Shown piece by piece: positions 3,881 to 50,399 of a stretch of DNA of 50,399 nt (positions are counted from its first letter, which is position 1; each line of letters starts with the position of its first letter). The DNA is from an uncultured Coriobacteriaceae bacterium. Lineage in GTDB: Bacteria; Actinomycetota; Coriobacteriia; Coriobacteriales; Eggerthellaceae. The position numbers and the translations under genes were made by a program. The stretch is from positions 1-50,399 of the forward strand of contig CACWWI010000003.1 of NCBI GenBank assembly GCA_902764575.1, written 5' to 3'. The notes beneath the pieces are model-generated. The model saw only the letters and a list, made by a program, of their open reading frames with translations. It made no database searches and was not told the DNA's origin.

Positions 3881-3914
3881 TATACCAAGCGCGCTTGTTG
3901 TATGATTCACCCAG

Positions 3915-3947
3915 TCCTTTAAGGCGGTACGGAGAGACCGGTAAGGA
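3915..3947 (+). promoter_or_regulatory. Candidate PyrR-binding RNA stem-loop overlapping the pyrR ribosome-binding site
   Basis: In UCCUU-UAAGG-CGGU-ACGGAGAG-ACCG-GU-AAGGA, the lower stem is tcctt/aagga, the upper stem cggt/accg, with a purine-rich GGAGAG loop and a UUUAAGG internal segment like known PyrR binding loops. It lies directly 5' of pyrR. Confidence 0.5.
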
Positions 3948-3949
3948 AA

Positions 3950-4546: not shown

Positions 4547-4549
4547 GCC

Positions 4550-5488: not shown

Positions 5489-5491
5489 AAC

Positions 5492-6799
5492 ATGGCTTTG
5501 TTGTTGAAGAACGCTCATGTTGTCGACCCTCAAGTGGGGATCAACGAAGTATGCGAGGTGCTCGTCCGCGACGGCGTCATCGTCGAGGTCGGGCACGATC
5601 TCGAGATGCCCAAGGGCGTCGAGCGCGACTTGGGAGGGAAGATCCTCGTACCCGGCCTCGTCGACATGCACGTGCATCTACGCGATCCGGGGCAGGAGTA
5701 CAAGGAAGACATCGAAACCGGTACGCGCGCGGCTGCCCATGGGGGATTCACCGACATCTGCTGCATGCCCAACACGAACCCCATCATCGACACGGGCGCC
5801 GTCGTCGAATACGTTCTGACGAAGGCGGCCGAGGTGGGGAAGTGCCGCGTACATGTTGCCGGCGCCTGCACGGCTGGCGAGAAGGGCGAGGCGCTCTCGG
5901 AGATGGGCGACATGGTCGCCCACGGCGCCGTCATGTTCACCGATGACGGGCGGGGCGTTCAGGACGCGGGCATGATGCGCCGCGTCATGGACTATGCGGT
6001 GCAGTTCGGGAAGGCCGTGAGCAGCCATTGCCAGGACGAGAGCCTGGTGGGCAAGGGCCAGATCAACGAAGGCTCCGTCTCGACGAAGCTCGGGCTGCTC
6101 GGCTGGCCCGCCACGGGCGAGGAGATACAGATCGGCCGCGATATCGAGATGTCGGCGCTCACGGGCTGCCCCATCCATATCCAGCACCTGTCGTCGGCGC
6201 GCGGCATCGAGCTCGTGCGAAGGGGGAAGTCCGACGGCGTGAAGGTGACGTGCGAGGTGACGCCGCACCACCTGTTCCTCACCGAGGAGTGCATCGGCGA
6301 CGACTACAACACCAACTTCAAGGTGAACCCGCCCCTGCGCACAGCGGCTGACGCCCAGGCGATCGTCGAGGCCGTCGTCGACGGCACGGTCGATTGCATC
6401 GTCACCGACCACGCCCCGCATGCGGCGCACGAGAAGGCGCGCGAGTTCGAGCTGGCGCCCTTCGGCATGACGGGCATCGAGACGAGCGTCGGGTGCATTG
6501 TCGGGAACCTCGTGAACACGGGGAAGATAACCTGGGAGCGCATGGTCGAGCTCATGAGCGTGAACCCGCGCCGCATCCTCGGCATCGACCGCGTGGCCAT
6601 CGAGCCGGGATCGCGCGCCGACCTCACGGTCATCGACCCAAACCTGAAGTGGACGGTAACAGAGGAGGAATTCGAGTCGAGGTCGTCGAACTCGGGCTTC
6701 CTCGGCTGGGAGCTCACCGGCCGCGCAACCGACGTGTACGTGGGCGGCTATGCCACGATGGAGGACGGAAAGATAACCGGCGAGCCAATCCACCTGTAG
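5492..6799 (+). CDS. pyrC: Dihydroorotase
   Basis: Motifs PGLVDMHVHLRDPG and TDHAPH are present. The length is 435 aa, in pyr operon context. Confidence 0.95.
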   Translation: MALLLKNAHVVDPQVGINEVCEVLVRDGVIVEVGHDLEMPKGVERDLGGKILVPGLVDMHVHLRDPGQEYKEDIETGTRAAAHGGFTDICCMPNTNPIIDTGAVVEYVLTKAAEVGKCRVHVAGACTAGEKGEALSEMGDMVAHGAVMFTDDGRGVQDAGMMRRVMDYAVQFGKAVSSHCQDESLVGKGQINEGSVSTKLGLLGWPATGEEIQIGRDIEMSALTGCPIHIQHLSSARGIELVRRGKSDGVKVTCEVTPHHLFLTEECIGDDYNTNFKVNPPLRTAADAQAIVEAVVDGTVDCIVTDHAPHAAHEKAREFELAPFGMTGIETSVGCIVGNLVNTGKITWERMVELMSVNPRRILGIDRVAIEPGSRADLTVIDPNLKWTVTEEEFESRSSNSGFLGWELTGRATDVYVGGYATMEDGKITGEPIHL

Positions 6800-6935
6800 G
6801 GAAGATAGGCCGATTTCCCCTGGTTAAGCCCATCGATCGCTCGGGAGAATACGTTGAAGCATGAGTTAACTGTGTTAAACTTCTACCGTGCGAACGAGAT
6901 CGTTTGCGGCGATTTCAGATGAAATGGAGCCGAAC

Positions 6936-9104
6936 ATGAAGCAGAGCAAGAAAAACGTCGCGAAGAGCGTGGGCTATTCGTTCCTGAGCCTGGCCCTCGC
7001 GTCGGCGACGCTCGTTCCCGCCGTCGCCATCGCCACCGAGAGCGGCGAGGCGGTGCTCCCAACGGGAGGTCCCGATAAGGCGAAGGAGTCGGGCTCCGCG
7101 AGCACGGCGCCCGAGAACCCCGCGAGCAAGGACGAGACGGTGTACGTCTACACGAAGGCGGACGGCTCGGTGAAGAACGTGGAAGTGCGCGCGACGTTGA
7201 AAAACGGGGACGACGCCGCCGAGCTCGCCGACTCGTCCAACCTCTCCGGCATCGAAGTCGACGAGGGCGACGGCGTGTATTCGGGGTCGCCATCCAGCAT
7301 GGTTTGGAGCGCCAACGGGGGAGACGTCACCTACAAGGGCGCGACTGACGCCGCAGCCCCCATCGAGGTGTCCGTCACGTACACGCTCGACGGGAAGCAG
7401 GTGAGCCCCGAGGAGCTCGCGGGCAAGAGCGGTCACGTGGTCGTGCGCTACGACTACGCCAACAACTCGAAGGAGACGGTGGAGGTGAACGGCGCGAGCC
7501 AGGAGGTCTACACGCCGTTCGTTGCCGTCACGGCGGTCCTGCTCGACGGCGACGTGTTCAGCAACGTGTCGGCCACCAACGGGAGGATCGTGGAGGACGG
7601 CGACCGCACGATCGTCGTAGGTTACGCGATGCCTGGCCTCGAGGAGAGCCTCGACCTTTCCGGGAACGATATCGCCATACCCGGTTATTTCGAGTTCGAG
7701 GCGGATGCGAAGAACTTCGCGCTCAAGTCCACGCTGACGATGGCCAGCCCCAACCTGTTCGATGATATGGACCTCGACTTCAACACGTCCGAGCTATCCG
7801 ATGTGTCGGGCTCGCTCACGCAGGCCATGGGCCAGATCGTGAACGGGTCGTCCGAGCTCACGGACGCAATCGAGAAGATCTCCGAGGCGGCGAACGCCGT
7901 GTCGGAGGGCAGCAGCGCGCTGGCTGGACAGTCATCGGCGCTGCCCTCGTCGGCACGCCAGCTCGCATCGGGCGCGCAAGGCGTGTCGGTCGGCATCGCG
8001 CAGGTGCTCGCGTCCGCGCAGGAGCTCGACAAGGGCTTGCTCCAGGTTATCGGTAGCCCCGGTGGCGGCACTGCAGAGGCGTCGGGGCTTGCAGGCGCCG
8101 CAGCCCAAACGGGCCAGCTCAAGCAGGTGGCAAACACGCTCTACGAATCGCTCAAAGCCTCAGCGGGGTCGCTGGGCTCCTCGTCGCTCCAGACGCAATC
8201 GACGAGCTCCAATTCTGAACTGTCCAACCTCGCCGACCGCGTGGCCAACGAAGCGGCCGCGAACCAGTCGGCCATGCAAGACGTCCAAAACACCGCAGGC
8301 CAAGTTGCTGTGTCTGCCTCCCAAGCGCAGGCCGACGCGAGCGCCGCTCAGGCAGCGCTGCAGTCGGTCAATTTGAGCTCGATCGAGGACGCCGCCGTCC
8401 GCGCCCAGGTGCAGGCCCAGCTCGACGCCGCGAGCGCGAGCCTTTCGCAGGCGAATGGGTCGGCCCAGGCGGCAGCTGATGCAGCTGCGAGCTTGCAAGC
8501 TGCCTCGTCGACCATCGACACGAGTGCGGCCACCGAAGCGGCGAGTGCGTTCGGGGCCGTGGGTTCCGGAACGCTGTCAGCGCAGGGGACGGGCGACACC
8601 TCGGCCGTGACTGGCAGCCAGGAGCAAATAGCCATGGCGAAGACGCTCCTCGACGGCCTAACTGCGCTCGAGTCCGGCCTGAACCAAGCGGTAGAGGGCC
8701 TTAGCACGATCGAACAGATGGTTTCGGGCAAGATGCTCGACAAGAGCGGGCTTCCCGCCCTCGCGAACGGCGCCGCGCAGGTGGCCCAGGGCGCTTCCGC
8801 GCTCAGCAACCAGGCACCCGCGCTCGTGGGCGGCATGGGCCAGCTCGCAAGCGGGACGAAGGACCTCGCGGGCGCGCTGGGCGCGTTGGCGACGGGCTCC
8901 CAGGAGCTCACGAGCGGCCTCCAGCAGTTCAGCGACCAGGGCATCTCCGCGCTCGCAAGCGCGCTCGACAGCAAGCTCGTGAGGCCACTCACCCGTTTCG
9001 ACGCCGTTGCGCAAGCGGGCCGCGACTACAAGAACTTCAGCGGCATAACCGAGGGCACCAAGGGCTCGGTGAAGTTCGTGTTCGAAACGGACTCCATAGG
9101 GTAG
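6936..9104 (+). CDS. Secreted protein with a beta-rich N-terminal domain and a long Ala/Ser/Gln-rich xxxLxxG heptad-repeat (YhgE/Pip-like) region
   Basis: Signal peptide MKQSKKNVAKSVGYSFLSLALASATLVPAVAIA. The repeat region is e.g. LTDAIEKISEAANAVSEGSSALAGQSSALPSSARQLASGAQGVSVG. There are no C-terminal TM segments. ATG 6936 is chosen inside ORF 6888-9104. Confidence 0.7.
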   Translation: MKQSKKNVAKSVGYSFLSLALASATLVPAVAIATESGEAVLPTGGPDKAKESGSASTAPENPASKDETVYVYTKADGSVKNVEVRATLKNGDDAAELADSSNLSGIEVDEGDGVYSGSPSSMVWSANGGDVTYKGATDAAAPIEVSVTYTLDGKQVSPEELAGKSGHVVVRYDYANNSKETVEVNGASQEVYTPFVAVTAVLLDGDVFSNVSATNGRIVEDGDRTIVVGYAMPGLEESLDLSGNDIAIPGYFEFEADAKNFALKSTLTMASPNLFDDMDLDFNTSELSDVSGSLTQAMGQIVNGSSELTDAIEKISEAANAVSEGSSALAGQSSALPSSARQLASGAQGVSVGIAQVLASAQELDKGLLQVIGSPGGGTAEASGLAGAAAQTGQLKQVANTLYESLKASAGSLGSSSLQTQSTSSNSELSNLADRVANEAAANQSAMQDVQNTAGQVAVSASQAQADASAAQAALQSVNLSSIEDAAVRAQVQAQLDAASASLSQANGSAQAAADAAASLQAASSTIDTSAATEAASAFGAVGSGTLSAQGTGDTSAVTGSQEQIAMAKTLLDGLTALESGLNQAVEGLSTIEQMVSGKMLDKSGLPALANGAAQVAQGASALSNQAPALVGGMGQLASGTKDLAGALGALATGSQELTSGLQQFSDQGISALASALDSKLVRPLTRFDAVAQAGRDYKNFSGITEGTKGSVKFVFETDSIG

Positions 9105-36038: not shown

Positions 36039-36521
36039 ATGAAACTTGGTTCTACCGTGCGCCTTATCTACACCGGCACGTTGAAGGACGGTACCGTCTT
36101 CGGGTATGCCAAGACCGAAGAGCCCATGGAGTTCCAGACGGGCATGGACCTCGTCATCGACGGCCTGGAGCGCGAGATCCTGCAGATGGAGGCCGGCGAG
36201 AAGAAGACGTTCACCATCGGCATGTACGACGCTTACGGCGAGTACCTCGACGACTTCATCGAAGTCGTGCCCGTGGAGAACGTTCCGCTGAAAAACGTTG
36301 AGATCGGCAACCGCATCTGGCTTTCGGGCGAGAACGGCGAGAAGATTCCCGTGAAGATCCTCGACATCAACTCCAAGGAGATCACGTTCGATATGAACCA
36401 TCCCCTTGCGGGCGAGGACCTCACGTTCGAGGTTGAGATCCTGAGCGTCGAGGAGCCTCCCGAGGGCTGGGAGCCCCCCAAGAAGCACGATCCCATGGAG
36501 TACGTGAACCAGCTCACGTAA
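36039..36521 (+). CDS. slyD: FKBP-type peptidyl-prolyl cis-trans isomerase (SlyD-like, with IF insert)
   Basis: VRLIYTGTLKDGTVFG...FQTGMDLVIDGLEREILQMEAGEKKTFTI...NHPLAGEDLTFEVEIL. Confidence 0.85.
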   Translation: MKLGSTVRLIYTGTLKDGTVFGYAKTEEPMEFQTGMDLVIDGLEREILQMEAGEKKTFTIGMYDAYGEYLDDFIEVVPVENVPLKNVEIGNRIWLSGENGEKIPVKILDINSKEITFDMNHPLAGEDLTFEVEILSVEEPPEGWEPPKKHDPMEYVNQLT

Positions 36522-37133: not shown

Positions 37134-39467
37134 ATGGCTTATTCCAAGGAGTGGCGTACCGAAATGCCCGACGGTACAATCGTCACCCGTTCGAACACCT
37201 GGTCGCCTCCGGGATCCCACCCCGTGGGATACGGCGTCAAGGTCGTGACCAAGGACGGCAAGCTCGTCCGCATCGAGGGCGACGATGACAACCCCATTAC
37301 CCTGGGCCGCGTCAACGCTCTGAACCTTGCGCTGCGCGAGTACACGCATCATCCCGACCGCATCATCTACCCGATGAAGCGTGCGGTCGAGGATCGTGGT
37401 AAAGACAAGTGGGTCCGCACCTCTTGGGACGAGTCCCTCGAGGTCATCACCGAGAAGGTTCGTTACTTCTGGGAGACCTATGGTCATGAGTCCATCGTCT
37501 GCTTCGGTGGCACCGGCCGTGAGGCTTGCATTTACTACTATGCTCTGACGTTCTCCGTCCTGCAGTCGCCGAACTGCTGCTACACGCAGTCTGGTTGGTC
37601 CTGCTACGGCCCGCGTTGCTCGGTTTCCGACTACGTCCTCGGCGCTGGTTACCCCGAGCTCGACTATGCTGGCCACCTGCCCGGCTCCTACGACGACCCG
37701 CGTTACACGCTGTCGAAGTACGTCGTGGTCTGGGGCAAGGAACCGCTGCCCTCCAACGGTGACGGCTTCTTCGGTCACTGCCTCGTCGACATGATGAAGC
37801 GTGGCTCCAAGATCATCTCCGTTGACCCGCGCGTCACCTGGGTTGGCGCCCATGACGGCAACATCAACGTTCAGCTGCGTCCGCAGACCGACACCTGCTT
37901 CGCCCTCGGCGTTATGAACCTCATGTTCCAGAACGACGAGTACGATCATGACATGGCTGAGAACTGGATCTTCGGCATCGACGAGCTCAAGGAGCGCGCT
38001 GCTGAGTATCCGGTCGAGAAGGTTTCCGAGATCACCACGGTTTCCGTCGAGACCATCGAGAAGGTCGCGCACATCATCGGCACCGAGCGCCCGATTGGTT
38101 GGGCTTGGGGCCTCGCGTTCGACCAGAACAAGAACGGCGTCCAGCTGTCGCAGTCGATGATCCTCCTGGCCGCTCTGGCTGGCTCGATCGACTCCCCCGG
38201 CGGCCTGACCCTCGGTCCTCCGTCCGCTCTGCTCGGCAAGTGGCGCATGGAGCAGCGTGGCGCAATGTCCGACGAGATTTGGCAGAAGCGCATCGGCGCT
38301 GCTGAGTGGCCCGGCCTGTCCACCGGCATGGCTACCACCCAGCCTGACGAGACGCTGAACACCATGGAGACGCATCAGCCTTATCAGCTGCGTTTCGCTT
38401 GGTTCAACTCCTCCAACTTCCTGGCCCCGACGTGCTCGGCTCAGCCGAAGCGTTGGCACAAGGCGCTGCTCGAGTCCATCGAGTTCTGCGTGATCCAGGA
38501 CCTCTGGATGACCCCGACGGCCATGGCTGTTGGCGACTGGTTCCTCCCGATGGCCACTTGGGCTGAGCATGACGGCATCGTCCTCACCCACTATGGCCGC
38601 AACACCGTGTTCATGGGCCCGATGAACAAGGCCCTGCAGTGCGGCGAGTGCATGTCCGACATCGAGATCTGCCTGATGTTCGGTTCGAAGCTCACCCCGA
38701 ACTGGTGGCCGTGGCTCGACAGCAACTGGATGCCGGGCGACAAGGATGGCGCTGCCATCGACCGCACCGAGCTCGACGCTGCTGTTGACAAGTTCTTCAG
38801 CGATCAGCTGGCTGAGCTCGACATGACCTTCAACGACCTCCGTGAAGAGGGTCTGTATCAGCCTGGTGCCCATGGCTTCGAGTACGACAAGTTCCGCAAG
38901 GGTCTGCTCCGCTTCGACGGCGAGCCTGGCTTCAACACCATCACTGGTCAGATCGAGGCCAACTCGATCCTCTACGCCTCCTGGGGCGAGGATCCGCTGC
39001 CTTACTACGAGGAGCCGAACTACCAGCAGATCGCCCGTCCGCAGGACGCCGAGGCTTATCCGCTGATTTCGACCTCTGGTTCCCGTCGTTACAGCTCCTT
39101 CCACTCCGAGCATCGTCAGGTTCCGTCCCTGCGTCAGATCGATCCGTGGGCATGGGTCCAGATTCCGCCCGAGACCGCCAAGGAATATGGCATCACCGAG
39201 GGCGACTGGGTCGAGGTCTACAACATGTTCGGCGAGGCGCGCTTCAAGGCAGAGATCACTCCTGTCCTGAAGCCGGGCGTCATCAACTGCGCTCATGGTT
39301 GGTGGTATCCTGAGCAGGACGGCGAAGAGCCCAACCTGTTCGGCGTGTGGAAGTCCAACTTCAACAGCCTGGTCCCGCACCAGAACATCGGCAAGCTTGG
39401 CTTCGGCGCTCCCTACAAGGGTGTCATGTGCAACATGAAGCGCGTCCGCAGCCTCGACGAGGATTAA
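37134..39467 (+). CDS. Cytoplasmic bis-MGD molybdopterin (DMSO-reductase superfamily) enzyme, catalytic subunit lacking the FS0 [4Fe-4S] cysteines
   Basis: The fold-typical blocks are DGKLVRIEGDDDNP, PDRIIYPMKR, ISVDPR and a C-terminal MGD-binding barrel (YPLISTSGSRRYSSFHSE...ITEGDWVEVYN...PGVINCAHGWW). There is no Cys in the first 122 aa and no twin-arginine signal. Confidence 0.85.
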   Translation: MAYSKEWRTEMPDGTIVTRSNTWSPPGSHPVGYGVKVVTKDGKLVRIEGDDDNPITLGRVNALNLALREYTHHPDRIIYPMKRAVEDRGKDKWVRTSWDESLEVITEKVRYFWETYGHESIVCFGGTGREACIYYYALTFSVLQSPNCCYTQSGWSCYGPRCSVSDYVLGAGYPELDYAGHLPGSYDDPRYTLSKYVVVWGKEPLPSNGDGFFGHCLVDMMKRGSKIISVDPRVTWVGAHDGNINVQLRPQTDTCFALGVMNLMFQNDEYDHDMAENWIFGIDELKERAAEYPVEKVSEITTVSVETIEKVAHIIGTERPIGWAWGLAFDQNKNGVQLSQSMILLAALAGSIDSPGGLTLGPPSALLGKWRMEQRGAMSDEIWQKRIGAAEWPGLSTGMATTQPDETLNTMETHQPYQLRFAWFNSSNFLAPTCSAQPKRWHKALLESIEFCVIQDLWMTPTAMAVGDWFLPMATWAEHDGIVLTHYGRNTVFMGPMNKALQCGECMSDIEICLMFGSKLTPNWWPWLDSNWMPGDKDGAAIDRTELDAAVDKFFSDQLAELDMTFNDLREEGLYQPGAHGFEYDKFRKGLLRFDGEPGFNTITGQIEANSILYASWGEDPLPYYEEPNYQQIARPQDAEAYPLISTSGSRRYSSFHSEHRQVPSLRQIDPWAWVQIPPETAKEYGITEGDWVEVYNMFGEARFKAEITPVLKPGVINCAHGWWYPEQDGEEPNLFGVWKSNFNSLVPHQNIGKLGFGAPYKGVMCNMKRVRSLDED

Positions 39468-39486: not shown

Positions 39487-39846
39487 ATGGCAGACACTCA
39501 ATACGGCCTGCTCGTTGACTACACGTACTTCTCCGGCAATCACGCTGCAGAGATTGCCTGCAAGGAGGAACTTGGTCTTCCGCTCGAGCAGTTTGGTATC
39601 AAGGAAGTCGAAGTCGGCCCCTTCCGCAAGGGCGAGGGTGACACTGGCGACGCTTGGGAATGGTTCTACATTCCTTGCCCGACCAGCATCTTCTCCGAGC
39701 ACTGGGGAGCCGGTGGCGATAAGGCCGGTCAGCGTCCCGTCGCTGTCCAGGTCGAAGAGTCTCACTCCATGTTCTATGGCCCTCTCGATGAGATGTACGC
39801 CAAGATGCAGGAGTTTGACCGCCCGACCGTTCTGTTCCGTCTCTAA
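39487..39846 (+). CDS. Degenerate ferredoxin-like (beta-subunit-derived) small subunit lacking Fe-S cluster cysteines
   Basis: YGLLVDYTYFSGNHAAEIACKEE mimics the N-terminal YG..VD...C.GC.AC..ACK.E motif of 4Fe-4S beta subunits, with 3 of 4 Cys replaced. The 119-aa protein has only 2 Cys. It lies 20 nt after the alpha stop. Confidence 0.7.
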   Translation: MADTQYGLLVDYTYFSGNHAAEIACKEELGLPLEQFGIKEVEVGPFRKGEGDTGDAWEWFYIPCPTSIFSEHWGAGGDKAGQRPVAVQVEESHSMFYGPLDEMYAKMQEFDRPTVLFRL

Positions 39847-39912: not shown

Positions 39913-40197
39913 ATGGATCGTGAAGAACTTCTGGCTCTAGACAACAGCGAGATCGCGAAGCTTCTCAACGACGCAATTGCCGCAGGCAAGACCAAGGACG
40001 AGGCGCTGGCCGAGTACCAGCTCGACGCTCCTGAGCTGATGAAGCAGAACATCTTCTGGGTCAAGGACAAGTTCCTGGCTCGCGCGTGGTCTGGCTACAC
40101 CAGCACGAAGCGTTCCGGCAACGAGTATGCTCAGGAAGGCGACGGCTGGCGCGGCGACGACGTCAAGGACTTCAAGGGCCGCGAGGTGCCTTGGTAG
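39913..40197 (+). CDS. Hypothetical 94-aa protein, third gene of the molybdoenzyme operon
   Basis: SD gaaggaggg precedes ATG 39913. Codon style matches the upstream genes. A strong terminator follows. No family was recognised. Confidence 0.55.
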   Translation: MDREELLALDNSEIAKLLNDAIAAGKTKDEALAEYQLDAPELMKQNIFWVKDKFLARAWSGYTSTKRSGNEYAQEGDGWRGDDVKDFKGREVPW

Positions 40198-40229: not shown

Positions 40230-40254
40230 GGGGTGGCTTCGGCCACCCCTTTTC
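40230..40254 (+). terminator. Rho-independent terminator of the molybdoenzyme operon
   Basis: ggggtggc-ttcg-gccacccc followed by TTTTC. Confidence 0.9.
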
Positions 40255-40398
40255 TATGCTGAAATACTGCTGTTTACAAGGCGCTTCGAAATAGGGCATG
40301 GGCCCTGCGCACGCGAGCTCATCCCTTTGCTATAATACTCTGCACGCAATAATGCATAGCCGTATACCGGAATCCGAAAGGGAAGGTGATGTGAGGTT

Positions 40399-40725
40399 AT
40401 GGCAACCGAAGAAGAGATCCGCGCAGAAGGTCGTTTGACCGAAGAGCAGGAGAACATCCTGTACAATATCGCGCTCAGGCAGGACGAGCTCGGCCGTGAG
40501 CCTACCAACGTCCTGCTCTCCAAGATCGAGAATAACCCGGTTTATCAAGGCATGATCGACCGCGAGCTCCTCACCTATCAGGTGTACAACCATGGCGGGG
40601 AAGGCGCTCCTGTTGTGGCGAGCCTCATCGTCACCCTCAAGGGCATGCGCTACTGCATCATGTACGGCGACGAGATCGAGCCTCGCCGCAAGTACGACAC
40701 CGCCGGTCGCCGTAGGGACCTGTAA
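40399..40725 (+). CDS. Hypothetical 108-aa protein
   Basis: The ORF starts at an ATG after ggaaggtgatgtgagg. No family was recognised. A terminator-like hairpin follows. Confidence 0.5.
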   Translation: MATEEEIRAEGRLTEEQENILYNIALRQDELGREPTNVLLSKIENNPVYQGMIDRELLTYQVYNHGGEGAPVVASLIVTLKGMRYCIMYGDEIEPRRKYDTAGRRRDL

Positions 40726-40770
40726 GGTTCTGGCTTGCTAAGCAGGCGCCAAGAAGAACCGGTGATAAAA

Positions 40771-40800
40771 GCCCACAGCCAACGAGGTTGCGGGCTTTTT
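40771..40800 (+). terminator. Imperfect terminator hairpin
   Basis: gcccaca...ttgcgggc followed by TTTTT. Confidence 0.55.
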
Positions 40801-40852
40801 CCTTTCTAAAGTAGAATCGAACCGTTCGAGGAAACAGGGCAAGGAGCAGTTC

Positions 40853-43120
40853 GTGGCATTAGGTGATGGGGTATCGGCAATAGCGTCGCTAGGCACGCTG
40901 GGAGTTACGTTCGGCGGCTTCTCGCCAACATTGATGAACGGCGTCGACACCTCCAAGGAGATGGTGGCGCAGTACGAGGCGATACACGAGCAGCGCAAAG
41001 AGGCCAAGAAGAAGCAACGTGAGCTTGAGTCGGCGCGCACGTCCAAGCCGATGAGCTTGGTCGATGAAAACGGCAACGTCTGGACATACGTCATCATAGA
41101 CGAGCGCGTGGCGCGCATCACGAAATGCGAGACGAGGAACGCGCGGGTTGAGTTTCCTGCTGAAATCGGGGGCGTTCCCGTGTATGCCATCGGCCCGGAG
41201 GCGCTTTCGGAGAACCCCGCTGTAGAGGAAATCGTATGCGCCGATTCCATCGAGAGCATCGGGGCTTGCGCGTTCAGGCTCAACGACAACCTCAGAAGGG
41301 TCGTGTTCCCGTACAACGTCACCGACTTCAACGAGAGCTGGGTCCGGCGATGCCCGCGGCTACAGGAGCTCGTGCTGCCGGGGTTGCTCGACGAGATAAA
41401 GCTGCACGTGCTCGATAACAGGAGCTTGAAGAGGCTCGTCATCGGGAAGAACGTATACAGCATCGAACCCGGCGCGTTCCAGAACACGCAGCTGTCCGAG
41501 GTGACCATCGATAGCGAGAACCCGTTTATAAAAACCGATGGCATAGGGATATACTCCTCGGACAACTCGGCGCTCTATGCGCTCGCGCGCCCAGTCGATC
41601 GCTACGAAGTGCTCGATGGTTGCACTGTGCTTGCGAAGAAGAGCTGTTATGGCATAGAAGCGCTGAAATCGATAACGTTGCCCGAGAGCGTGGAGCAGCT
41701 CGACGCATTCGCGCTATCGCATTCGGGCATTACCGGGTTCGTGGCCCCGAGCGCGCTGCGGACAATCGGGGAGAAGGCGTTCTACTACTGCAAGGACCTT
41801 GCGAGCGTGCGGCTCAACGACGGCCTCGTTTACCTCGGCGATTCGGCGTTCGAGGAAAGCGGGCTGTCCGCCTTGCGCATCCCTGCAAGCATCGAGCACA
41901 TCGGCACTTCCATTACGGCACGAACCGAGGTGGTGCATTCGGGCGACGGTTGCACGCTCGAGATCGATTCGCTATGCGAGCGCTTCTTCCTCGACGGAGC
42001 AGGTGGGCTCTACCGCAAGGCCGAGGACGGGGCACATCTCGTTCAGCTGATCGACCGCGAGATGCGCACGTACGAGATGGGGGCCGATGCGGTCGCCATC
42101 GACCCCTATGCGTTCGCGTACCATACGGTTGTCGAGCGGGTGGTCGTGAACGACGGCGTTAAGGTCATCGGGAGGAACGCGTTTCGCGTGTGCAACAAGC
42201 TCACGCAGGTCGAGCTGCCCGATTCCGTCGTCGAGATTGGGGATGAGGCGTTCCTCGACTCGAATCTCAAGTCGTTCAGGGTGCCCGCGAGCCTCGAGAA
42301 GCTCGGCAAGAACGCGCTCATAACGTATGGCGCGCATCACGGCGGCGCTATGCCGTCGCTTGCGCACGTGGAGGTGGCGCCTGGCAACGAACGCTTCTAC
42401 CTTGTGTCGGGCATGCTCTGCGAACGGCGCGAGTCGGGGTCGGCGGTCATCATATTCACGAGCTCGGAGGAGCACGTCGTGTTCCCCGAAGAGATAACGC
42501 GCGTTGAGGAGTTCGCCTTCAACAACGCGCGCGGGATAGACTATCTGGGACTCAATCCCGGTCTCAAGACGATTGGGCTATCCGGGCTGGCCACCTGGTG
42601 CTGGATTCGCCATATCCACGTGGAGCTCCCAGAGCCGCTCGAGGGGCGCACGGAATACGATTTCTTCTTTCCCGACACGCCCAAGGGCATCCACGGCATC
42701 TGTAACGGCATCGGTGGATCCGCGTGGGTGAACGTGCCAGCGATCATGGCGCAGTACGACAACTGCATCGTGAACGCGCGCGATTACAACTCGCCGATGA
42801 GCAGCGACAACATTACGGCATACGAGCAGGCGAAGCTCATACTCGGGCGTATGAACGACCCTATCATGCTCACGGATGTCAACCGTGGCATGTTCGAGCG
42901 GCTGCTGCGCACCTATATCGGCGAGATCTGCGTCGACATCGCGCGTCATGACGACCGCGAGGCGATGGACGAGCTCATAGACCGTGGGTTCGTGAACGAG
43001 GATAATCTCGAGAGCATAATCACGCGGGTGGGGCGCTTGCAGGATGCCGCCATGACCGCGCATCTGCTGGAAGTGAAGCGCCTAAGGTTCAACAAGGCCA
43101 TCATAGATTTCGACCTCTAA
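40853..43120 (+). CDS. BspA-type leucine-rich repeat (LRR_5-like) protein, no obvious signal peptide, helical C-terminal domain
   Basis: SD aaggag lies 6 nt before GTG 40853. There are many ~23-25 aa repeats of the type L..V.IP.SV..IG..AF..C..L, e.g. LKSITLPESVEQLDAFALSHS, LASVRLNDGLVYLGDSAFEES and LTQVELPDSVVEIGDEAFLDS. Confidence 0.8.
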   Translation: MALGDGVSAIASLGTLGVTFGGFSPTLMNGVDTSKEMVAQYEAIHEQRKEAKKKQRELESARTSKPMSLVDENGNVWTYVIIDERVARITKCETRNARVEFPAEIGGVPVYAIGPEALSENPAVEEIVCADSIESIGACAFRLNDNLRRVVFPYNVTDFNESWVRRCPRLQELVLPGLLDEIKLHVLDNRSLKRLVIGKNVYSIEPGAFQNTQLSEVTIDSENPFIKTDGIGIYSSDNSALYALARPVDRYEVLDGCTVLAKKSCYGIEALKSITLPESVEQLDAFALSHSGITGFVAPSALRTIGEKAFYYCKDLASVRLNDGLVYLGDSAFEESGLSALRIPASIEHIGTSITARTEVVHSGDGCTLEIDSLCERFFLDGAGGLYRKAEDGAHLVQLIDREMRTYEMGADAVAIDPYAFAYHTVVERVVVNDGVKVIGRNAFRVCNKLTQVELPDSVVEIGDEAFLDSNLKSFRVPASLEKLGKNALITYGAHHGGAMPSLAHVEVAPGNERFYLVSGMLCERRESGSAVIIFTSSEEHVVFPEEITRVEEFAFNNARGIDYLGLNPGLKTIGLSGLATWCWIRHIHVELPEPLEGRTEYDFFFPDTPKGIHGICNGIGGSAWVNVPAIMAQYDNCIVNARDYNSPMSSDNITAYEQAKLILGRMNDPIMLTDVNRGMFERLLRTYIGEICVDIARHDDREAMDELIDRGFVNEDNLESIITRVGRLQDAAMTAHLLEVKRLRFNKAIIDFDL

Positions 43121-43172
43121 CTTGTTTATACTTAGCGATGATACATTGCTGAGTAAACGTTAGGTAATCGAA

Positions 43173-44843
43173 TTGGCACAGGTGGTCGATCAGAAGCAAG
43201 TGCGCCAAGAGCGCGCTCGCAAGTTGGCGTTGGATGTCATCGACGAGTGCCGCGTGCAGCTGATGCTCAAGTTCCGCTTCCTCGATTTGGCGTTGTGGCG
43301 CATGGAATCGGAGGCGACCAGCGTCCAGGCGCGCTATGCCCTCGCGACCGACGGCCAGCGCGTGTACTTCGAGCCGTTTACGGTGCTCGGTCGGTTCGAC
43401 GCCAGCTTCAACGAGATGGTGCGCGACTACCTTCACCTGGTGATGCACTGCATATTCAGGCACCCGTTCGACAAGCTGCACGACCGCCACGAGGCATGGT
43501 GGCTCGCGTGCGACGTCATCGCCGAGAGCGTTTCCATGGAGATGTGCGGAGGCCGCTTCGAGAGCGAGCTCGACAAGGAACGGCGCGGCGCGCTCTCCGA
43601 GCTCAAGCTCATGTGCGGGGCGCTGACGCCCGGCAAGCTGTACGGGCTGTTCATGAAATCGCTCACCGCGCCCGAGGGAAGCTCCATGCAGGTGCTCAGC
43701 GACGCGCGCATGAACGAGTTCCGCGCTCTGTTCGAGCGCGACAACCACGAGGCATGGCCCTCCTACGCGAAGGGAAAGCCCGAGGAAACGCCGGGCGACA
43801 TCGAAGAGCTCGCGCAGCCGGGCGACGAAGGGGACGAGCCTGCCGACACCGAGCAGCAGATGGTCGTTGACGGCGAGATGGAGGAAGCCGACTCCGAGAA
43901 CCAGGAAGTGAAGAACCCCGAGTCATCCGAGGAATCCAGCGACTCCGAGGACGAGGCCGAGGGAACGTCTGCCGACGCGAACGATACGACCGATGCCGAA
44001 GACGCCGAGGACACCATAGAATCGGGCTTCCAGGGCAGCTCCTCGTCCGACGACGAGGACAGCGACGAGGTTGAGGACGAGAAGTCCGAGGACGAGCGCG
44101 ATTGGGAGGAAATCGCCAAGCAGATCGAGATGAACCTCGAGACGTTCTCGAAGGAGTGGGGCGACGAGGCGGGGAGCCTCATAACGAGCCTCACCATCGC
44201 CAACCGCAAGAAGTACGACTACTCCGACTTCCTGCGGCGCTTCGCGGTGCTCTCCGAGGAGATGAAGATCAACGACGACGAGTACGACTACGTGTTCTAC
44301 ACCTATGGGCTTGAGCTGTACGGCAACATGCCGCTCGTCGAGCCGCTCGAGTACAAGGAGACGCAGCGCATCCGCGATTTCGTCATCTGCATCGACACGT
44401 CGGAGTCGTGCAGGGGCGACCTCGTGCGCAAGTTCGTGGAGCACACGTTCAACGTTATCAAGAAATCAGAGGACTACGCCCATGAGGTGAACATCCACGT
44501 CATCCAATGCGATGCGAAGGTGCAGGCCGACACGAAGATCACCGATCTGCGCGACGTGGACGTGTTCATGGACGGGTTCTTCGTTCGCGGCATGGGCGGC
44601 ACCGATTTCCGCCCTGCGTTCGCGTACGTGAACCAGCTCGTGGACAGGGGAGAGCTGCCCGACATGAAGGGCATGATCTACTTCACCGACGGCCTGGGCC
44701 AGTATCCGGACAAGGCGCAAGACTACGACGTCGCGTTCGTGTTCATGGACGACGGGCAGAACAACATCCCGTCGGTGCCGCCCTGGGCCATGCGCGTGCT
44801 CATTGACGAAGAGGGTATCAACCGCTTTAGGAGCGAACTGTAG
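43173..44843 (+). CDS. DUF2201-type protein: degenerate metallopeptidase-like N-domain, acidic linker, C-terminal vWA domain with intact MIDAS
   Basis: The N-domain has HLVMHCIFRH where relatives carry HExxH. The linker is ~110 aa and D/E/S-rich. The vWA MIDAS residues are DTSES...GGTD...FTDG. The start is TTG (or nearby GTG). Confidence 0.8.
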   Translation: MAQVVDQKQVRQERARKLALDVIDECRVQLMLKFRFLDLALWRMESEATSVQARYALATDGQRVYFEPFTVLGRFDASFNEMVRDYLHLVMHCIFRHPFDKLHDRHEAWWLACDVIAESVSMEMCGGRFESELDKERRGALSELKLMCGALTPGKLYGLFMKSLTAPEGSSMQVLSDARMNEFRALFERDNHEAWPSYAKGKPEETPGDIEELAQPGDEGDEPADTEQQMVVDGEMEEADSENQEVKNPESSEESSDSEDEAEGTSADANDTTDAEDAEDTIESGFQGSSSSDDEDSDEVEDEKSEDERDWEEIAKQIEMNLETFSKEWGDEAGSLITSLTIANRKKYDYSDFLRRFAVLSEEMKINDDEYDYVFYTYGLELYGNMPLVEPLEYKETQRIRDFVICIDTSESCRGDLVRKFVEHTFNVIKKSEDYAHEVNIHVIQCDAKVQADTKITDLRDVDVFMDGFFVRGMGGTDFRPAFAYVNQLVDRGELPDMKGMIYFTDGLGQYPDKAQDYDVAFVFMDDGQNNIPSVPPWAMRVLIDEEGINRFRSEL

Positions 44844-44856
44844 ATAGGAGAGCTGC

Positions 44857-47289
44857 ATGAACATCGCAACAGCGAAAGAGCAGATCAAGGACACCGTAGA
44901 GGCGTACCTGCAGAAAGACGACGCGGGGATGTACGTCATCAGCCCGTCGCGGCAGCGCCCGATGTTCCTCGTGGGCGCGCCGGGCATCGGCAAGACGGCC
45001 ATCATCGAGCAGATAGCGCAGGAGCTGCAGATCGGCGTGGTGTCGTACTCGATGACGCATCACACGCGCCAGAGCGCGCTCGGCTTGCCGCGTATCGTGC
45101 ACTGCGAGTTCGAGGGGTTCGAGTACGAGGCCTCCGAGTACACGATGAGCGAGATCGTGAGCGCGATCTACGACTACATGGAGCGCTCGGGCGAGCGCAA
45201 GGGCATCCTGTTCCTCGACGAGATCAACTGCGTCTCGGAGACGCTGTACCCGTCGATGCTCCAGTTCCTGCAGTTCAAGACGTTCGGCCGCCACAAGGTG
45301 CCCGATGACTGGATCATCGTGTGCGCGGGCAACCCGCCCGAGTACAACAAGTCGGTGCACGAGTTCGACATCGTGACGCTCGACCGCCTGCGCGAGATCG
45401 ACGTCGAGCCCGATTACGCCGCGTTCAAGCGCTACGCCACCGAGAAGGGCATCCATCCGGCGGTGACGACGTTCCTCGAGGCTAAGCCCGACTGCTTCTA
45501 CAAGGTTGAGAGCAAGCCGGGCGGTGGCAAGAGCTTCGTGACGGCGCGCGGCTGGGAAGACCTCGCCGAGGTGATAACGCTCTACGAGCAGCTGGGCAAG
45601 CCGTGCGACCGCGAGCTGTTCGTGCAGTTCCTGCGCGACGACGACATCGCCGATCGCTTCTCGGTGTACTACAGCCTGTTCGACAAGTACCGCTCCGACT
45701 ACCAGATCGGCAAGATCTTGGCCGGCTCCGCGAGCCGCGACGTGGTGGAGCGCGCGAAGAACGCGCCGTTCGACGAGCGCGTGGCACTGCTGGGCCTGGT
45801 TCTGGACGCACTCGCGCTGCAGTGCTCCGCCACGCTCGACCAGGAGGGCCTGGTCGTCGCGATGCGAGACGAGCTGCGCTTGGCCAAGCCGCTGCTCATG
45901 GAGGGCTACACGGTCGAAGACGCCATCGTGAAGCCGCTCCACGCACGCGAGGACGCGCTCGACCGCAAGCTGGCCGCAGGCACGGCCAAGAAGTCCTTCG
46001 TGCGCAGCGAGAACCTCTACCTGCGCAAGATCCGCGACGTCGTGGACGCCTGCGTGGCCGAGCACACCGAGGAGGGCCCCGCGGCGTTCGAGACGGTGAA
46101 CAAGAGCTATCGCGCCGAGGTGGACAAGATCAGCCCGCTCGTCGAGGAAACCCAGAAGAAGATGAACAACGCGTTCGCGTTCATCGAGGACAGCTACGGC
46201 AATAACCGCGAGATGCTCGTCTTCATGGCAGAGCTCACGACGCGCGCGATCACGACGCAGTTCATCGCGCATTACGGCAACGACGCGTACTACGCCCACA
46301 ACGACGAGCTGAAGGTCGACGAGGCGCGCAAGGGCCTCACGGAGCGCGTACGCGAGCTGAGCAACCTCGAGGAGGAGGTCAGGAGCTCGCAGGCGCTCGA
46401 GTCGAACGACCTCGACATGGGCAGCGCCGTCGGGTTGGGCCGAGCGGCATCGAGCGTTCCCAAGCCGGAGCGTTCCGGCGAGGAGCCGGGCTCTTCGCCC
46501 GCTGAGGGGAATGCGCATCCGGAGCTCGACTCGTATTACGAGGACAAGCACGAGCGCGAGGACGGTTTCGACAGCGCATGCCGCATGACGCTTCCCGTGG
46601 AAGGCGACATAGACGGCTACTACCACAACCGCGAGCACGAGTTCGGGTTCGCCTCCATGAGCCGCATGACGCTGCCCGGCATGAAGGGCCAGCGCGTGCT
46701 CAACGTATGCTGCCGTCGCGGCAAGGGCGTGTTCAAGATGTCGGCTATGGTGGGGAAGAAGGGCCGCGTGATCGGAACCGACTGGTCGCCGTCCTACATT
46801 GCCGAGGCAGAGGCCGATTCCGAGCGCGCGTGGCGCAAGAACCACCTGCAGGAAAGCAACATGGAGTTCCATGTGGCGTACCCCGAGGACCTCATGGAGG
46901 CAGGTATCGGCGACAATTCGGTCGACATGGTCTACATCAACAATGTCATGACGCTGCTCTACGACCAGGAGAAAGCCATCAAGGAGTTCTACCGCGTGCT
47001 AAAGCCGGGCGGGCTGCTCGTGTGCGAGACCATCTTCTCCGACAAGGAGCGCGACGACGAAGTCGTGCGCAAGGCGCGCGCCATAGGCAACAGCGTCCAG
47101 GCCGGCCGCACGAAGGAGGAGCTGTTCGCCCTGCTGTCGGCCGCCGGGTTCGGTAAGCCCGAGATCGTCGACGAGTTCGAGGTGGCTGCCGACCAGGGGT
47201 TCAAGGCCAATCGTACCGTCGAGGTCGTCGAGAGCGACGAGGACGTGACGTTCTCCGCCGTCGCCATCAACGTGAGGAAGCCCGAATAG
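44857..47289 (+). CDS. MoxR/AAA_5-type ATPase fused to a long helical region and a C-terminal class I SAM-methyltransferase-like domain
   Basis: Walker A is GAPGIGKT and Walker B is ILFLDEIN. The C-terminal region is VLNVCCRRGKG...VIGTDWS...VDMVYINNVM...LKPGGLLVCE (ArsM/Methyltransf_31-like). SD aggaga precedes the ATG. Confidence 0.8.
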   Translation: MNIATAKEQIKDTVEAYLQKDDAGMYVISPSRQRPMFLVGAPGIGKTAIIEQIAQELQIGVVSYSMTHHTRQSALGLPRIVHCEFEGFEYEASEYTMSEIVSAIYDYMERSGERKGILFLDEINCVSETLYPSMLQFLQFKTFGRHKVPDDWIIVCAGNPPEYNKSVHEFDIVTLDRLREIDVEPDYAAFKRYATEKGIHPAVTTFLEAKPDCFYKVESKPGGGKSFVTARGWEDLAEVITLYEQLGKPCDRELFVQFLRDDDIADRFSVYYSLFDKYRSDYQIGKILAGSASRDVVERAKNAPFDERVALLGLVLDALALQCSATLDQEGLVVAMRDELRLAKPLLMEGYTVEDAIVKPLHAREDALDRKLAAGTAKKSFVRSENLYLRKIRDVVDACVAEHTEEGPAAFETVNKSYRAEVDKISPLVEETQKKMNNAFAFIEDSYGNNREMLVFMAELTTRAITTQFIAHYGNDAYYAHNDELKVDEARKGLTERVRELSNLEEEVRSSQALESNDLDMGSAVGLGRAASSVPKPERSGEEPGSSPAEGNAHPELDSYYEDKHEREDGFDSACRMTLPVEGDIDGYYHNREHEFGFASMSRMTLPGMKGQRVLNVCCRRGKGVFKMSAMVGKKGRVIGTDWSPSYIAEAEADSERAWRKNHLQESNMEFHVAYPEDLMEAGIGDNSVDMVYINNVMTLLYDQEKAIKEFYRVLKPGGLLVCETIFSDKERDDEVVRKARAIGNSVQAGRTKEELFALLSAAGFGKPEIVDEFEVAADQGFKANRTVEVVESDEDVTFSAVAINVRKPE

Positions 47290-47303
47290 AATCGCGGGGA
47301 ATG

Positions 47304-47340
47304 GGGCTGTAGCATCACATTTGCTACAGCCCATCTCTTG
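47304..47340 (+). terminator. Terminator-like hairpin ending the LRR-vWA-AAA operon
   Basis: gggctgtagc-N9-gctacagccc followed by aTcTcTT. Confidence 0.5.
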
Positions 47341-47431
47341 GCGTTTGGGCATGAGGTGACATTGGGGACTGCCCCCTTGCCCCCCTTTACAATGGCGTTC
47401 GCTATTTTGCCCAGCTTGAAACGAAGGTGTT

Positions 47432-49390: not shown

Positions 49391-50399
49391 TTAGCCGTTT
49401 ACCGGGTGGATGGCAACCTCCCGGACAAAGGAGCCTTGTTCGTCTGCGTCGAGGACGTGGAACGCTATTGCGGGCTCGACATCGAGCGCGCTGAGCGTAT
49501 CGAGGTAGCGCAGGGGGAAGGCGATGGACTGCTCCATGTCGTTCGGCATGAAGTCCGTACAGCCGGCTGCGGTGAGAGCATCGTATGCAGCCTCGCGGTC
49601 GTCGCCGTACACCTTCGCGCATTTCAGGAAGAAGTCCCCCTCGTCGAAGGACAGGATGGGCGTCATGTGCGCGCCGCGTTCGTTGCGCAGGCGCATCTCG
49701 CTGCGGTGCTTGTTGTCGAGCGAGCAGTAGTGCATGCCGAAGGGCACGTCGTGGTCGATGCCCCAGAGCATCAGCTCCAGGCAGAGCTCCTCGCTTCCCG
49801 CAACGGGCAGGCCGCCCGAGTACCCGTAGTCGTACATGACGTCGAACGGCGGGTTGCGAATCTCGAAGCCGCGCTTGGCGTATTCCTCCCAGCTGTGGAA
49901 GGGGAAGCAGAACTCGAGCAGGTTGATGCCGTCGATGCCGATTTCGGCCCAGCGTCCGAACAGCTCGTGCATGCGCTCGTCGGTGTTCGGGATGATGGGC
50001 ATTTCCACCATAATCGACGGAATGTGGCGGCGCGCGATCTCCATGGCCGCAAGCACGCGTTCCTGGCGCTCGATGGGGTCGTCTTGCTTCACGCTGAAGC
50101 GCATCTCGTCGAGGCCGACGTCGTGCAGGCGCTTAGCGCCCTCCTCGGTGAGCAGGTCGCCCGATGTGTACATGCGCTTGTGGGCAGAGGGGAACCGACG
50201 CCCCGCCTCTTCGAGCAGGGCGATCGAATCGTCAAGCACGAGCAGGGGTTCGCCTCCGGTCAGGCCCAGGACGGCGAGATTGTCGTGCCCGTAGCGCCTT
50301 TCGGCATCGTCGAGCCCATCGCGCCAAGGGCAGCCCTCGCGCACGAACTTGTCGTAGTCGGCGACGTTGTAGTTGAAGCAGAAGTAGCAGTCGCGGTGG
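49391..50399 (-). CDS. Radical SAM domain protein (N-terminus beyond the window edge)
   Basis: The frame stays open to nt 50399. The upstream translation ...HRDCYFCFNYN supplies the last two Cys of CX3CX2C. GLTGGEPLL is the SAM-binding GGE motif. Confidence 0.75.
   Translation of the reverse strand, partial: HRDCYFCFNYNVADYDKFVREGCPWRDGLDDAERRYGHDNLAVLGLTGGEPLLVLDDSIALLEEAGRRFPSAHKRMYTSGDLLTEEGAKRLHDVGLDEMRFSVKQDDPIERQERVLAAMEIARRHIPSIMVEMPIIPNTDERMHELFGRWAEIGIDGINLLEFCFPFHSWEEYAKRGFEIRNPPFDVMYDYGYSGGLPVAGSEELCLELMLWGIDHDVPFGMHYCSLDNKHRSEMRLRNERGAHMTPILSFDEGDFFLKCAKVYGDDREAAYDALTAAGCTDFMPNDMEQSIAFPLRYLDTLSALDVEPAIAFHVLDADEQGSFVREVAIHPVNG

Follow-up and report, generated by a model that had tools for sequence, protein, structure and literature searches.

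What do three closely packed genes encoding a leucine-rich repeat (LRR) protein, a protein with a vWA domain and a MoxR-type ATPase fused to a methyltransferase-like domain do together, and on which client would they act? The question is raised by a trio near the end of a 50,399-nucleotide stretch of contig CACWWI010000003.1 (assembly GCA_902764575.1) from an uncultured Coriobacteriaceae bacterium of the Eggerthellaceae, a stretch referred to here as the window. We read this trio as the Eggerthellaceae version of an ATP-driven machine of three cytoplasmic proteins that is widespread in gut anaerobes and has yet to be characterised. A plausible account of its function, which we hold tentatively, is that of a MoxR/vWA-type remodelling machine with the repeat protein as its adaptor and the neighbouring molybdenum (Mo) protein as its likely client. 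The genes and their parts are as follows, with all coordinates given as positions in the window and on the forward strand unless stated otherwise.

40853-43120 (+): gene 1, 755 aa, start codon GTG; conserved FGGF[ST]P N-terminal motif, LRR_5 repeats at residues ~95-600, ankyrin-like helical domain at ~640-745 and DFDL tail at 43106-43117 (Pfam, PDB LRR_5 structures, alignments)
43173-44843 (+): gene 2, 556-aa open reading frame (ORF), start codon TTG; N-domain with HxxxH at 43434-43448 and E118, acidic linker at ~43758-44102, and vWA metal-ion-dependent adhesion site (MIDAS) with DTSES at 44394-44408, T477 and D506 (Pfam, conservation, AlphaFold model, Foldseek)
44857-47289 (+): gene 3, 810 aa, start codon ATG
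44857-46380 (+): gene 3 N-terminal 508 residues, AAA_5/MoxR-class core with a long helical domain; Walker A at 44974-44997, Walker B at 45208-45228
46381-46665 (+): gene 3 disordered linker of variable length, residues 509-603 (predicted local distance difference test score (pLDDT) <50, variable alignment columns)
46666-47289 (+): gene 3 ArsM-fold class I methyltransferase-like domain, CCRRGKG at 46708-46728 (Pfam, NCBIfam, Foldseek)

The arrangement of three same-strand, tightly spaced genes noted in a first-pass annotation made from the sequence was confirmed, with spacers of 52 nt between genes 1 and 2 and 13 nt between genes 2 and 3. The database gene call for gene 2 starts at GTG 43182, three codons downstream of the TTG, yielding a protein of 553 aa; this is the probable start, and its use lengthens the first spacer to 61 nt. 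The sequence AGGAG lies 5' of the gene 3 ATG.

The central evidence for a three-protein machine is the recurrence of the trio. One genome per species was scanned with the most conserved ATPase peptides, yielding at least 599 ATPase matches, and 80 loci were kept. Approximately 45 of these encode the ATPase-methyltransferase fusion, all from Coriobacteriia except for a few contigs with odd bin names, and the other ~35 encode ATPases of ~500 aa without the methyltransferase, including those of Lachnospiraceae, Oscillospiraceae and other Clostridia at ~50% identity. An exhaustive HMMER search (E<=1e-30) yielded 492 clusters at 50% identity, of which nearly all are ~500 aa in length, and the fusion makes up essentially one cluster. 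Among the relatives of the fusion protein, the best 120 of 8000 scored are full-length matches with 57-94% identity, the named ones being from Eggerthellaceae or other Coriobacteriia. The vWA gene adjoins the ATPase gene in every locus with enough flanking sequence, comprising 83 genome loci (tblastn) and 31/31 metagenome loci, and in every Coriobacteriia locus the vWA gene is immediately preceded by the LRR gene (tblastn). Most Clostridia loci carry an LRR or ankyrin (ANK) gene as the third member, which may stand before, between or after the other two and is present in one to four copies. A repeat gene was detectable in 24 of the 31 metagenome loci with enough flank, and one of the seven apparent negatives, when inspected, proved to have, between its vWA and ATPase genes, a gene of 308 aa that encodes the same helical domain and tail as gene 1. 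The reach of the family is illustrated by a paralogous trio in locus L003, in which the ATPase (56% identity to that of the window, no methyltransferase), the vWA protein (40%) and the LRR protein (25%, including the C-terminal helical domain) are all recognizable. In total, homologues of the three genes occur together in more than 100 loci from two phyla, and the proposal in the first-pass annotation of a conserved ternary module is borne out by this synteny. Three contigs labelled Bacteroidaceae, Ruthenibacterium and Hallerella (L019, L027 and L046, respectively) carry the Coriobacteriia-type fusion at ~51-59% identity and are probably mis-binned rather than transfers.

A constant third subunit of LRR/ANK type with a conserved tail was not found in the MoxR-vWA literature searched. 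Gene 1 belongs to the LRR_5 family (Pfam, E=2e-55), and its initial description as a cytoplasmic repeat protein with a Shine-Dalgarno sequence (AAGGAG, 6 nt 5' of the GTG) and a helical C-terminal domain stands. The constant element of the third protein is the ankyrin-like helical domain together with the C-terminal tail, not the LRR array. A terminal [DE][FYWLIM]x[LIV]-COOH pattern is present in 56 of 78 third components versus 9 of 887 other ORFs of the same loci; gene 1 itself ends in DFDL, and the third proteins that fall outside the pattern are mostly near-matches such as KFEL, IWEL and EFAL. The acidic-hydrophobic tail is also found on an ankyrin protein devoid of LRRs (L082) and on short single-repeat proteins (L090), and the equivalent third proteins of L082 and L063 have Ank matches. 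A subgroup from Lachnospiraceae has the helical domain at the N-terminus and lacks the tail. Tandem paralogous LRR genes, three to four per trio, were observed in L053 (1432-7571), L063 (2285-9972) and L067 (1590-9998), which suggests that several adaptors may serve one motor.

Membership of the LRR_5 family, together with weak NCBIfam adhesin matches that fall far under their cut-offs and a hairpin separating genes 1 and 2, could be taken to mean that gene 1 encodes an independent, exported BspA-type surface adhesin that simply stands beside the MoxR/vWA pair. We consider this extremely improbable, and rejected it, as gene 1 lacks a signal peptide, a transmembrane segment and an anchor (no basic n-region, no hydrophobic core, maximum KD19 hydropathy of 1.28), and the N-termini of its orthologues are polar, not hydrophobic. 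The helical domain and tail are conserved and are common to the ANK partners without LRRs, and gene 1 is linked to the vWA and ATPase genes throughout. Neither a signal peptide nor a transmembrane segment was detected in any protein of the seven-gene block to which the trio belongs, and all seven are predicted to be cytoplasmic. The evidence supports gene 1 as the cognate partner of the vWA/ATPase pair, not an adhesin.

Residues 36-177 of gene 3 match AAA_5 (PF07728; 36.1 bits against a cut-off of 22), and both the Walker A motif GAPGIGKT and the Walker B motif LFLDEIN are invariant in 42 orthologues and 20 distant homologues. The family also displays the strikingly conserved stretches SYSMTHHTRQSALGLP and GILFLDEINCVSETL.PSMLQFLQ. 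In the AlphaFold models, residues ~181-508 form a helical region and the linkers are disordered and acidic or of low complexity; where the helix-2 insert and the pre-sensor-1 hairpin of the MoxR clade were looked for, the model has a beta-hairpin (residues 81-92) that follows a strand at 60-65, at low pLDDT (50-74). A PDB search with the ATPase profile gave midasin as its best match (E=3e-9), with the similarity confined to the P-loop region. The N-terminal part of gene 3 corresponds to the family-wide ~500-aa protein, and its assignment as an AAA_5/MoxR ATPase with a helical region and a C-terminal class I methyltransferase-like domain is upheld by Pfam and by the models. With AAA_5 membership, intact Walker motifs and an adjacent vWA partner, the analogy with MoxR/vWA systems drawn in the first reading is sound.

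Gene 2 supplies that partner. It matches DUF2201 (VWA-like) with E=1e-8 and 35.8 bits against a cut-off of 26.4 (Pfam), and 40/40 orthologues match this family too; its AlphaFold model displays a vWA fold for which Foldseek returns vWF-A and integrin I domains (E ~1e-5); a PDB sequence search with gene 2 gave no match. The MIDAS residues D408, S410, S412, T477 and D506 are at least 95% conserved among 62 homologues. Between the two domains, the model predicts a disordered linker of ~110 aa with 40% D/E, and such long D/E-rich linkers (100-200 aa, 30-44% D/E) are confined to the Coriobacteriia. The earlier assignment of a complete MIDAS and an acidic linker holds, and its N-terminal DUF2201_N family is reached by 17 of 40 orthologues (best E 1.5e-7) but not at E<=0.01 by the protein of the window. 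In the N-domain, H88, H92 and E118 are at least 95% conserved, and the residue that follows the first His of the HxxxH motif is never Glu (H-[LMSTAC]-x-x-H in 62/62 homologues). Because this Glu is missing throughout, the site resembles that of a zincin without its general base, and the N-domain is predicted to be catalytically dead as a peptidase. The literature searched mentions DUF2201 and describes no function for it.

The C-terminal domain of gene 3 sets the Coriobacteriia proteins apart. Several class I methyltransferase families of Pfam score above their cut-offs at residues ~603-760, and the METHYLTRANSFERASE-like domain is modeled confidently (pLDDT ~90). Its closest structural and sequence match is the arsenite methyltransferase ArsM/AS3MT (Foldseek E=4e-15, root-mean-square deviation 2.3 Å over ~220 columns), but the identity of an arsenite methyltransferase was rejected: the NCBIfam score is 70.6 bits against a cut-off of 263, and Asn and Ser stand at the positions of the arsenic-binding cysteines C174 and C224. 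The S-adenosylmethionine (SAM) motif I reads CCRRGKG, not GxGxG. In the alignment of VLNVCCRRGKG with VLDLGCGTGRD of ArsM, Cys or Ala takes the place of the first Gly, and Arg that of the second. Motif I is invariant across 42 orthologues, with C619, R620, R621, G622 and G624 all invariant. The CCRRGKG motif also occurs in a free-standing methyltransferase gene located 3' of the trio in Gordonibacter sp. 28C (L057 12425-13147). The methyltransferase-like domain is an addition to the ATPase found only in Coriobacteriia and has an atypical SAM motif, and because of both, the label of effector given to it in the first-pass annotation is premature.

The candidate client is provided by the genes upstream of the trio, which are listed here with the hairpins that punctuate the block.

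37134-39467 (+): Mo protein, 777 aa, first gene of a conserved seven-gene block (Pfam, PDB match, synteny)
39487-39846 (+): b119, small subunit of 119 aa, present in 33 loci (alignment with paralogues)
39913-40197 (+): p3, small conserved protein of ~94 aa, ~27 orthologous loci (tblastn); the ORF begins at GTG 39853 and orthologues favour the ATG at 39913
40230-40255 (+): terminator-like hairpin with U-run, 3' of p3 (dG -18.9, z -4.1)
40399-40725 (+): p4, small conserved protein of 108 aa (tblastn)
40762-40806 (+): terminator-like hairpin with U5 tail, between p4 and gene 1 (dG -19.8 kcal/mol, z -5.1)
43129-43155 (+): 12-bp hairpin without U-run in the spacer between genes 1 and 2 (dG -16.5, z -3.4)
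47296-47345 (+): strong hairpin without U-run, 3' of gene 3 (dG -25.2, z -5.3)

The first-pass annotation had presented the trio as an isolated operon bounded by terminator-like hairpins. Both bounding hairpins are real, although the one at the 3' end has no U-run, and the isolation does not hold up in evolutionary terms: the trio is part of a block with the order Mo protein, b119, p3, p4, LRR, vWA and ATPase-methyltransferase. Of the 32 orthologous fusion loci whose flanks are long enough, ~27 have Mo-b119-p3-p4 upstream of the trio, down to ~54% identity of the ATPase. Three orthologous loci, L001-L003 (~60-80% identity), have the same seven genes and different downstream flanks. The boundary between the two halves of the block is crossed in L038, L039 and L040, from three genomes, where a paralogous LRR protein begins with a p4-like sequence as an in-frame fusion (ORFs of 874-890 aa at 3907-6579, 5271-7907 and 5619-8243, respectively); because of this fusion, p4 at least is tied to the trio. 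The small protein p3 has no Pfam or NCBIfam match. The loci that we term type C have two Zn-ribbon proteins at the corresponding position; the idea that p3 and p4 are degenerate forms of these was discarded (hhalign probability <1%).

The Mo protein of this block has Molybdopterin and Molydop_binding domains (Pfam) and no twin-arginine translocation (TAT) signal, and among PDB entries it matches acetylene hydratase 2e7z best (E=1e-62); the Cys that ligates Mo/W is aligned and kept. All four cysteines of the FS0 [4Fe-4S] cluster are replaced, whereas paralogues retain them, and the ferredoxin-like b119 has lost seven of its eight cluster cysteines, whereas its paralogues retain CxxCxxCxxxC plus four more. 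The two proteins are 79-96% conserved across Eggerthellaceae genera despite the loss of these cysteines. Their sequences point to a bis-molybdopterin guanine dinucleotide (bis-MGD) protein with no electron-transfer chain. The architecture of the pair, ~770 aa plus a small subunit and no TAT signal, matches that of the two-subunit catechol dehydroxylases of Gordonibacter (PMC11585353, PMC7028382), and the catechol-dehydroxylase literature examined makes no mention of AAA, vWA or LRR accessory genes.

Other Mo enzymes accompany related trios. Two more trio orthogroups lie beside their own Fe-S-containing pairs of Mo protein and small subunit, one comprising L003, L007 and L009, with a LysR regulator nearby, and the other comprising L052, L057, L059, L060, L064, L066 and L072, with two Zn-ribbon proteins and either major facilitator superfamily (MFS) transporters or a PAS-sigma-54 activator. 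Loci L052 and L057 have a separate methyltransferase gene. In Oscillospiraceae, a vWA-LRR-AAA trio is located 3' of an operon of the xanthine dehydrogenase (XDH) family, with FAD, 2Fe-2S and molybdenum-cofactor (MoCo) components, on the same strand (L080 2532-11515, L083 1184-10282, L087 2220-11497); the gaps between operon and trio are 18-165 nt in L080 and L083, and in L074 the XDH-family gene is divergent from the trio. Collectively, these associations are suggestive of a tie to molybdenum. As the module is genomically joined to the Mo block, the neighbouring Fe-S-less Mo-protein complex is the client that we would name first for the Eggerthellaceae trio, though the assignment is doubtful.

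A number of observations weigh against that client and against parts of the machine proposed here. In a reverse test, six diverse loci were picked via the Fe-S-type small subunit (with Eggerthellaceae, other Coriobacteriia, Adlercreutzia and Dehalobacter among them, and nine enzyme pairs in total), and no LRR_5, DUF2201 or MoxR-like gene was present within 10 kb in 6/6 of these two-subunit Mo loci, so the trio is not a general neighbour of this enzyme family. Only one of the 80 metagenome loci of Clostridia type has a Mo enzyme beside the trio, the Clostridia loci show no conserved client gene next to it, and the Mo block is absent from five orthologous fusion loci (L012, L013, L024, L025 and L036). 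Adjacency to Mo enzymes as a general rule was therefore rejected, XDH-family genes having been found beside the trio in L074, L080, L083 and L087. The terminator-like hairpins split the block of the window into the probable units Mo-b119-p3, p4 and genes 1-3. Eggerthellaceae are rich in Mo enzymes, and some adjacency is expected by chance. As for gene 3, the top 50 Foldseek matches include no AAA+ protein, the list being filled by methyltransferases, and methyl transfer is doubtful because of the Arg at the position of the second Gly in motif I.

These observations are what would be expected if the trio were a general MoxR/vWA/repeat-protein chaperone, with clients among other proteins bound by the LRR/ANK surface and a seven-gene block that is no more than inherited gene order, which we regard as a genuine but not a favoured possibility. 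The trio genes are the only conserved neighbours in Clostridia, the reverse test and the five fusion loci without a Mo block point the same way, the units are parted by hairpins, and nearby FKBP and trigger-factor genes may be mere housekeeping synteny. Such a chaperone does not account as readily for the p4-LRR fusion, which joins a gene of the Mo block to the trio, for a block that travels as a unit while its flanks change, or for three trio orthogroups that each have their own pair of Mo protein and small subunit. To call the trio a remodeller in general is nonetheless much safer than to name the Mo protein as its client.

The known systems of MoxR/vWA type, which include CbbQO, NorQD, CoxDE, RavA-ViaA, the chelatases and midasin, provide the framework for a mechanism. 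As reviewed (PMC7159879), the vWA protein captures a substrate peptide or acidic residue at its MIDAS, and mechanical work then comes from the ATPase ring; CoxD/CoxE are reported to mature a Mo enzyme (PMC4240915). The DFDL tail stands out as the candidate ligand, either for the MIDAS or for the dead zincin pocket of gene 2. By analogy, the docking of the tail, the way in which force is applied, the client and a possible methyl transfer may be pictured as follows. The MIDAS, or possibly the dead-peptidase pocket, of gene 2 would capture the DFDL-type tail of the repeat protein, the LRR/ANK repeat surface would hold the client protein, and the ATPase ring would turn ATP hydrolysis into pulling or remodelling. 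In Eggerthellaceae, the client would be the Mo-protein complex, which might thus be matured, assembled or activated, perhaps with methylation by the tethered domain.

Each of the known systems resembles the trio in part. CoxD/CoxE/CoxF of the Mo-Cu CO dehydrogenase likewise combine a MoxR ATPase with a vWA-MIDAS partner beside a molybdoenzyme, and the Oscillospiraceae trio 3' of the XDH-family operon recalls the coxMSL-coxDE layout. However, the trio has no CoxF/XdhC-like gene and includes a repeat protein as its third component; its Mo neighbour belongs to the DMSO-reductase family and is devoid of Fe-S clusters, most homologous trios have no adjoining Mo enzyme, and the likeness does not extend to demonstrated orthology at the sequence level. 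CbbQ/CbbO (Rubisco activase) and NorQ/NorD (NO reductase) share an AAA_5 hexamer and a single vWA adaptor that uses its MIDAS to hold an acidic client residue, and their ATP-driven action remodels a finished enzyme. Whereas these are two-component systems that act directly on the enzyme, the trio has a constant LRR/ANK member with a conserved tail, and its ATPase is ~150 aa longer (the helical domain) and bears the methyltransferase-like domain. Midasin/Rea1 has AAA_5 modules, a D/E-rich segment before the MIDAS and repeat-protein ligands (Ytm1/Rsa4) that give an acidic residue to the MIDAS, but it is a single giant eukaryotic polypeptide with six AAA modules where the trio consists of three separate small proteins, and the similarity found around the P-loop alone indicates analogy, not relationship. 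The midasin comparison can be taken further, to a trio that is a split bacterial midasin-like extraction machine whose MIDAS grips the DFDL tail and that supplies in Coriobacteriia a missing factor by which cytoplasmic bis-MGD enzymes with two subunits are matured or activated, namely those of the Gordonibacter catechol-dehydroxylase type together with the Fe-S-less derivative, while the ArsM-fold domain methylates the client or binds a ligand on it; in this extended form, the proposal is speculative and on balance unlikely.

The class I chelatases CobS/CobT/CobN and BchI/BchD/BchH offer a different comparison, as their AAA+ motor likewise works with a large third subunit and with a vWA subunit that carries an acidic linker. 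The trio could accordingly be a metal or cofactor insertase, in which an AAA_5 protein (CobS/BchI-like) and an acidic-linker vWA protein (CobT/BchD-like) insert a metal or cofactor into a target held on the third subunit, with any Zn site in the N-domain as the hand-over point. A chelatase-like organisation in three parts, with the acidic linker ahead of the MIDAS, is seen here as well, the HxxxH...E site is conserved while its catalytic Glu is missing, and trios adjoin Mo enzymes of two families. Nevertheless, Pfam and NCBIfam give no match to the CobN/BchH-like, CobT or Mg_chelatase families, a cofactor pocket is not obvious in the third subunit, which is an LRR/ANK repeat protein, and no XdhC/CoxF-type partner was seen in the window, leaving an insertase very unlikely.

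A role in conflict was the first interpretation placed on the trio, as a ternary defence or signalling system in which an invader or ligand would be sensed by the LRR protein, with the vWA protein as adaptor and the ATPase-methyltransferase fusion as both switch and effector. Ternary MoxR-vWA conflict systems do exist (PMC7159879, PMC8195603), and in those described by Kaur et al. (2020/2021), a MoxR ATPase and a vWA protein are likewise joined by a variable third component. The LRR protein evolves much faster than its partners (~40% identity where the ATPase has ~68% and the Mo protein ~80%) and its copy number varies from one to four per locus (L053, L063, L067), and a few defence genes lie near Clostridia trios. 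In one Lachnospiraceae trio (L061 2780-4729), a Septu-like PtuA gene (E=2e-173) and PtuB are inserted between the vWA and LRR genes.

The greater part of the evidence stands against such a role, however, and we judge it distinctly unlikely. The described systems have other third components and occur mainly in multicellular bacteria (PMC8195603, PMC7159879), whereas the hosts of the trio are unicellular gut anaerobes and its LRR_5/ANK component is not of the VMAP, iSTAND, TERNS3 or beta-propeller type as defined in the same papers. The vWA domain of the trio is located C-terminal to a dead zincin domain, and gene 2 has only this N-domain, the linker and the vWA domain, with no effector domain on it or beside it; the trio has no effector-associated domain (EAD)- or Death-like adaptors. 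The bpMoxR profile (PF20030) scores 21.8 bits on gene 3, under its cut-off of 27, and a PADLOC scan of the three proteins matched no system, with nothing for genes 1 and 2 and only generic matches for gene 3 (mad2 on the methyltransferase, IetA on the P-loop). Among 2.9 million viral contigs, only two matched, both with the same cellular-type trio. The surroundings in the window are those of a core housekeeping region (oxoacid:ferredoxin oxidoreductase, pyrB/C/D/F, thiI, comEC, holA), and the block looks vertically inherited across Eggerthellaceae genera. Rare codons in the LRR gene had been read as a hint of horizontal origin, but its codon usage is ordinary, with a GC content at third codon positions (GC3) of 0.80 and a codon adaptation index (CAI)-like value of 0.62, both of which fall within the range of the housekeeping genes of the window (0.52-0.84), and a horizontal origin finds no support.

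To our knowledge, MoxR/vWA pairs are among the least understood AAA+ systems, with clients known for only a handful. The trio defines a large subfamily of them, with at least 492 clusters at 50% identity from hundreds of gut species and a constant third subunit, and its C-terminal ΦDL tail is a concrete candidate for a docking element, whose counterpart on gene 2 would be the complete MIDAS or the catalytically dead zincin pocket. The Eggerthellaceae module is coupled to a molybdopterin protein that is strongly conserved and from which every Fe-S ligand has been lost. If the Mo-bisMGD protein is indeed its client, it would join the short list of MoxR functions. The enzymes that dehydroxylate polyphenols are hard to express heterologously, and homologues of these enzymes lie beside the module; should the trio mature or activate dehydroxylase-type enzymes, it would be of practical use in the gut-microbiome field, and as a split-midasin maturation factor it would help to explain why such enzymes are difficult to express outside Coriobacteriia.

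Several minor features accompany the trio. The hairpin in the spacer between genes 1 and 2 may tune the ratio of their expression or serve as a processing site. Near the main block, an FKBP/SlyD-like gene (36039-36521) and the housekeeping trigger factor are found repeatedly, and in L059, L060, L064, L066 and L072, which belong to one Coriobacteriia orthogroup, a trigger-factor paralogue of 279 aa (tig, E=5e-22; for example, L060 11516-12355) lies directly 3' of the ATPase gene. A radical SAM gene at 49391-50344 (-) also recurs near the trio, being located directly downstream in L001 and, in L055, behind the second trio; radical SAM genes of another type adjoin paralogous trios in L036, L038, L039 and L054, and a radical SAM gene stands immediately upstream of the p4-LRR fusion in two of L038-L040. 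Elsewhere in the window, an ORF of 738 aa at 6888-9104 is located between pyrC and pyrD within the cluster of pyrimidine genes; its product starts with a clear signal peptide, has a long region rich in Ala, Ser and Gln, and matches no Pfam family.

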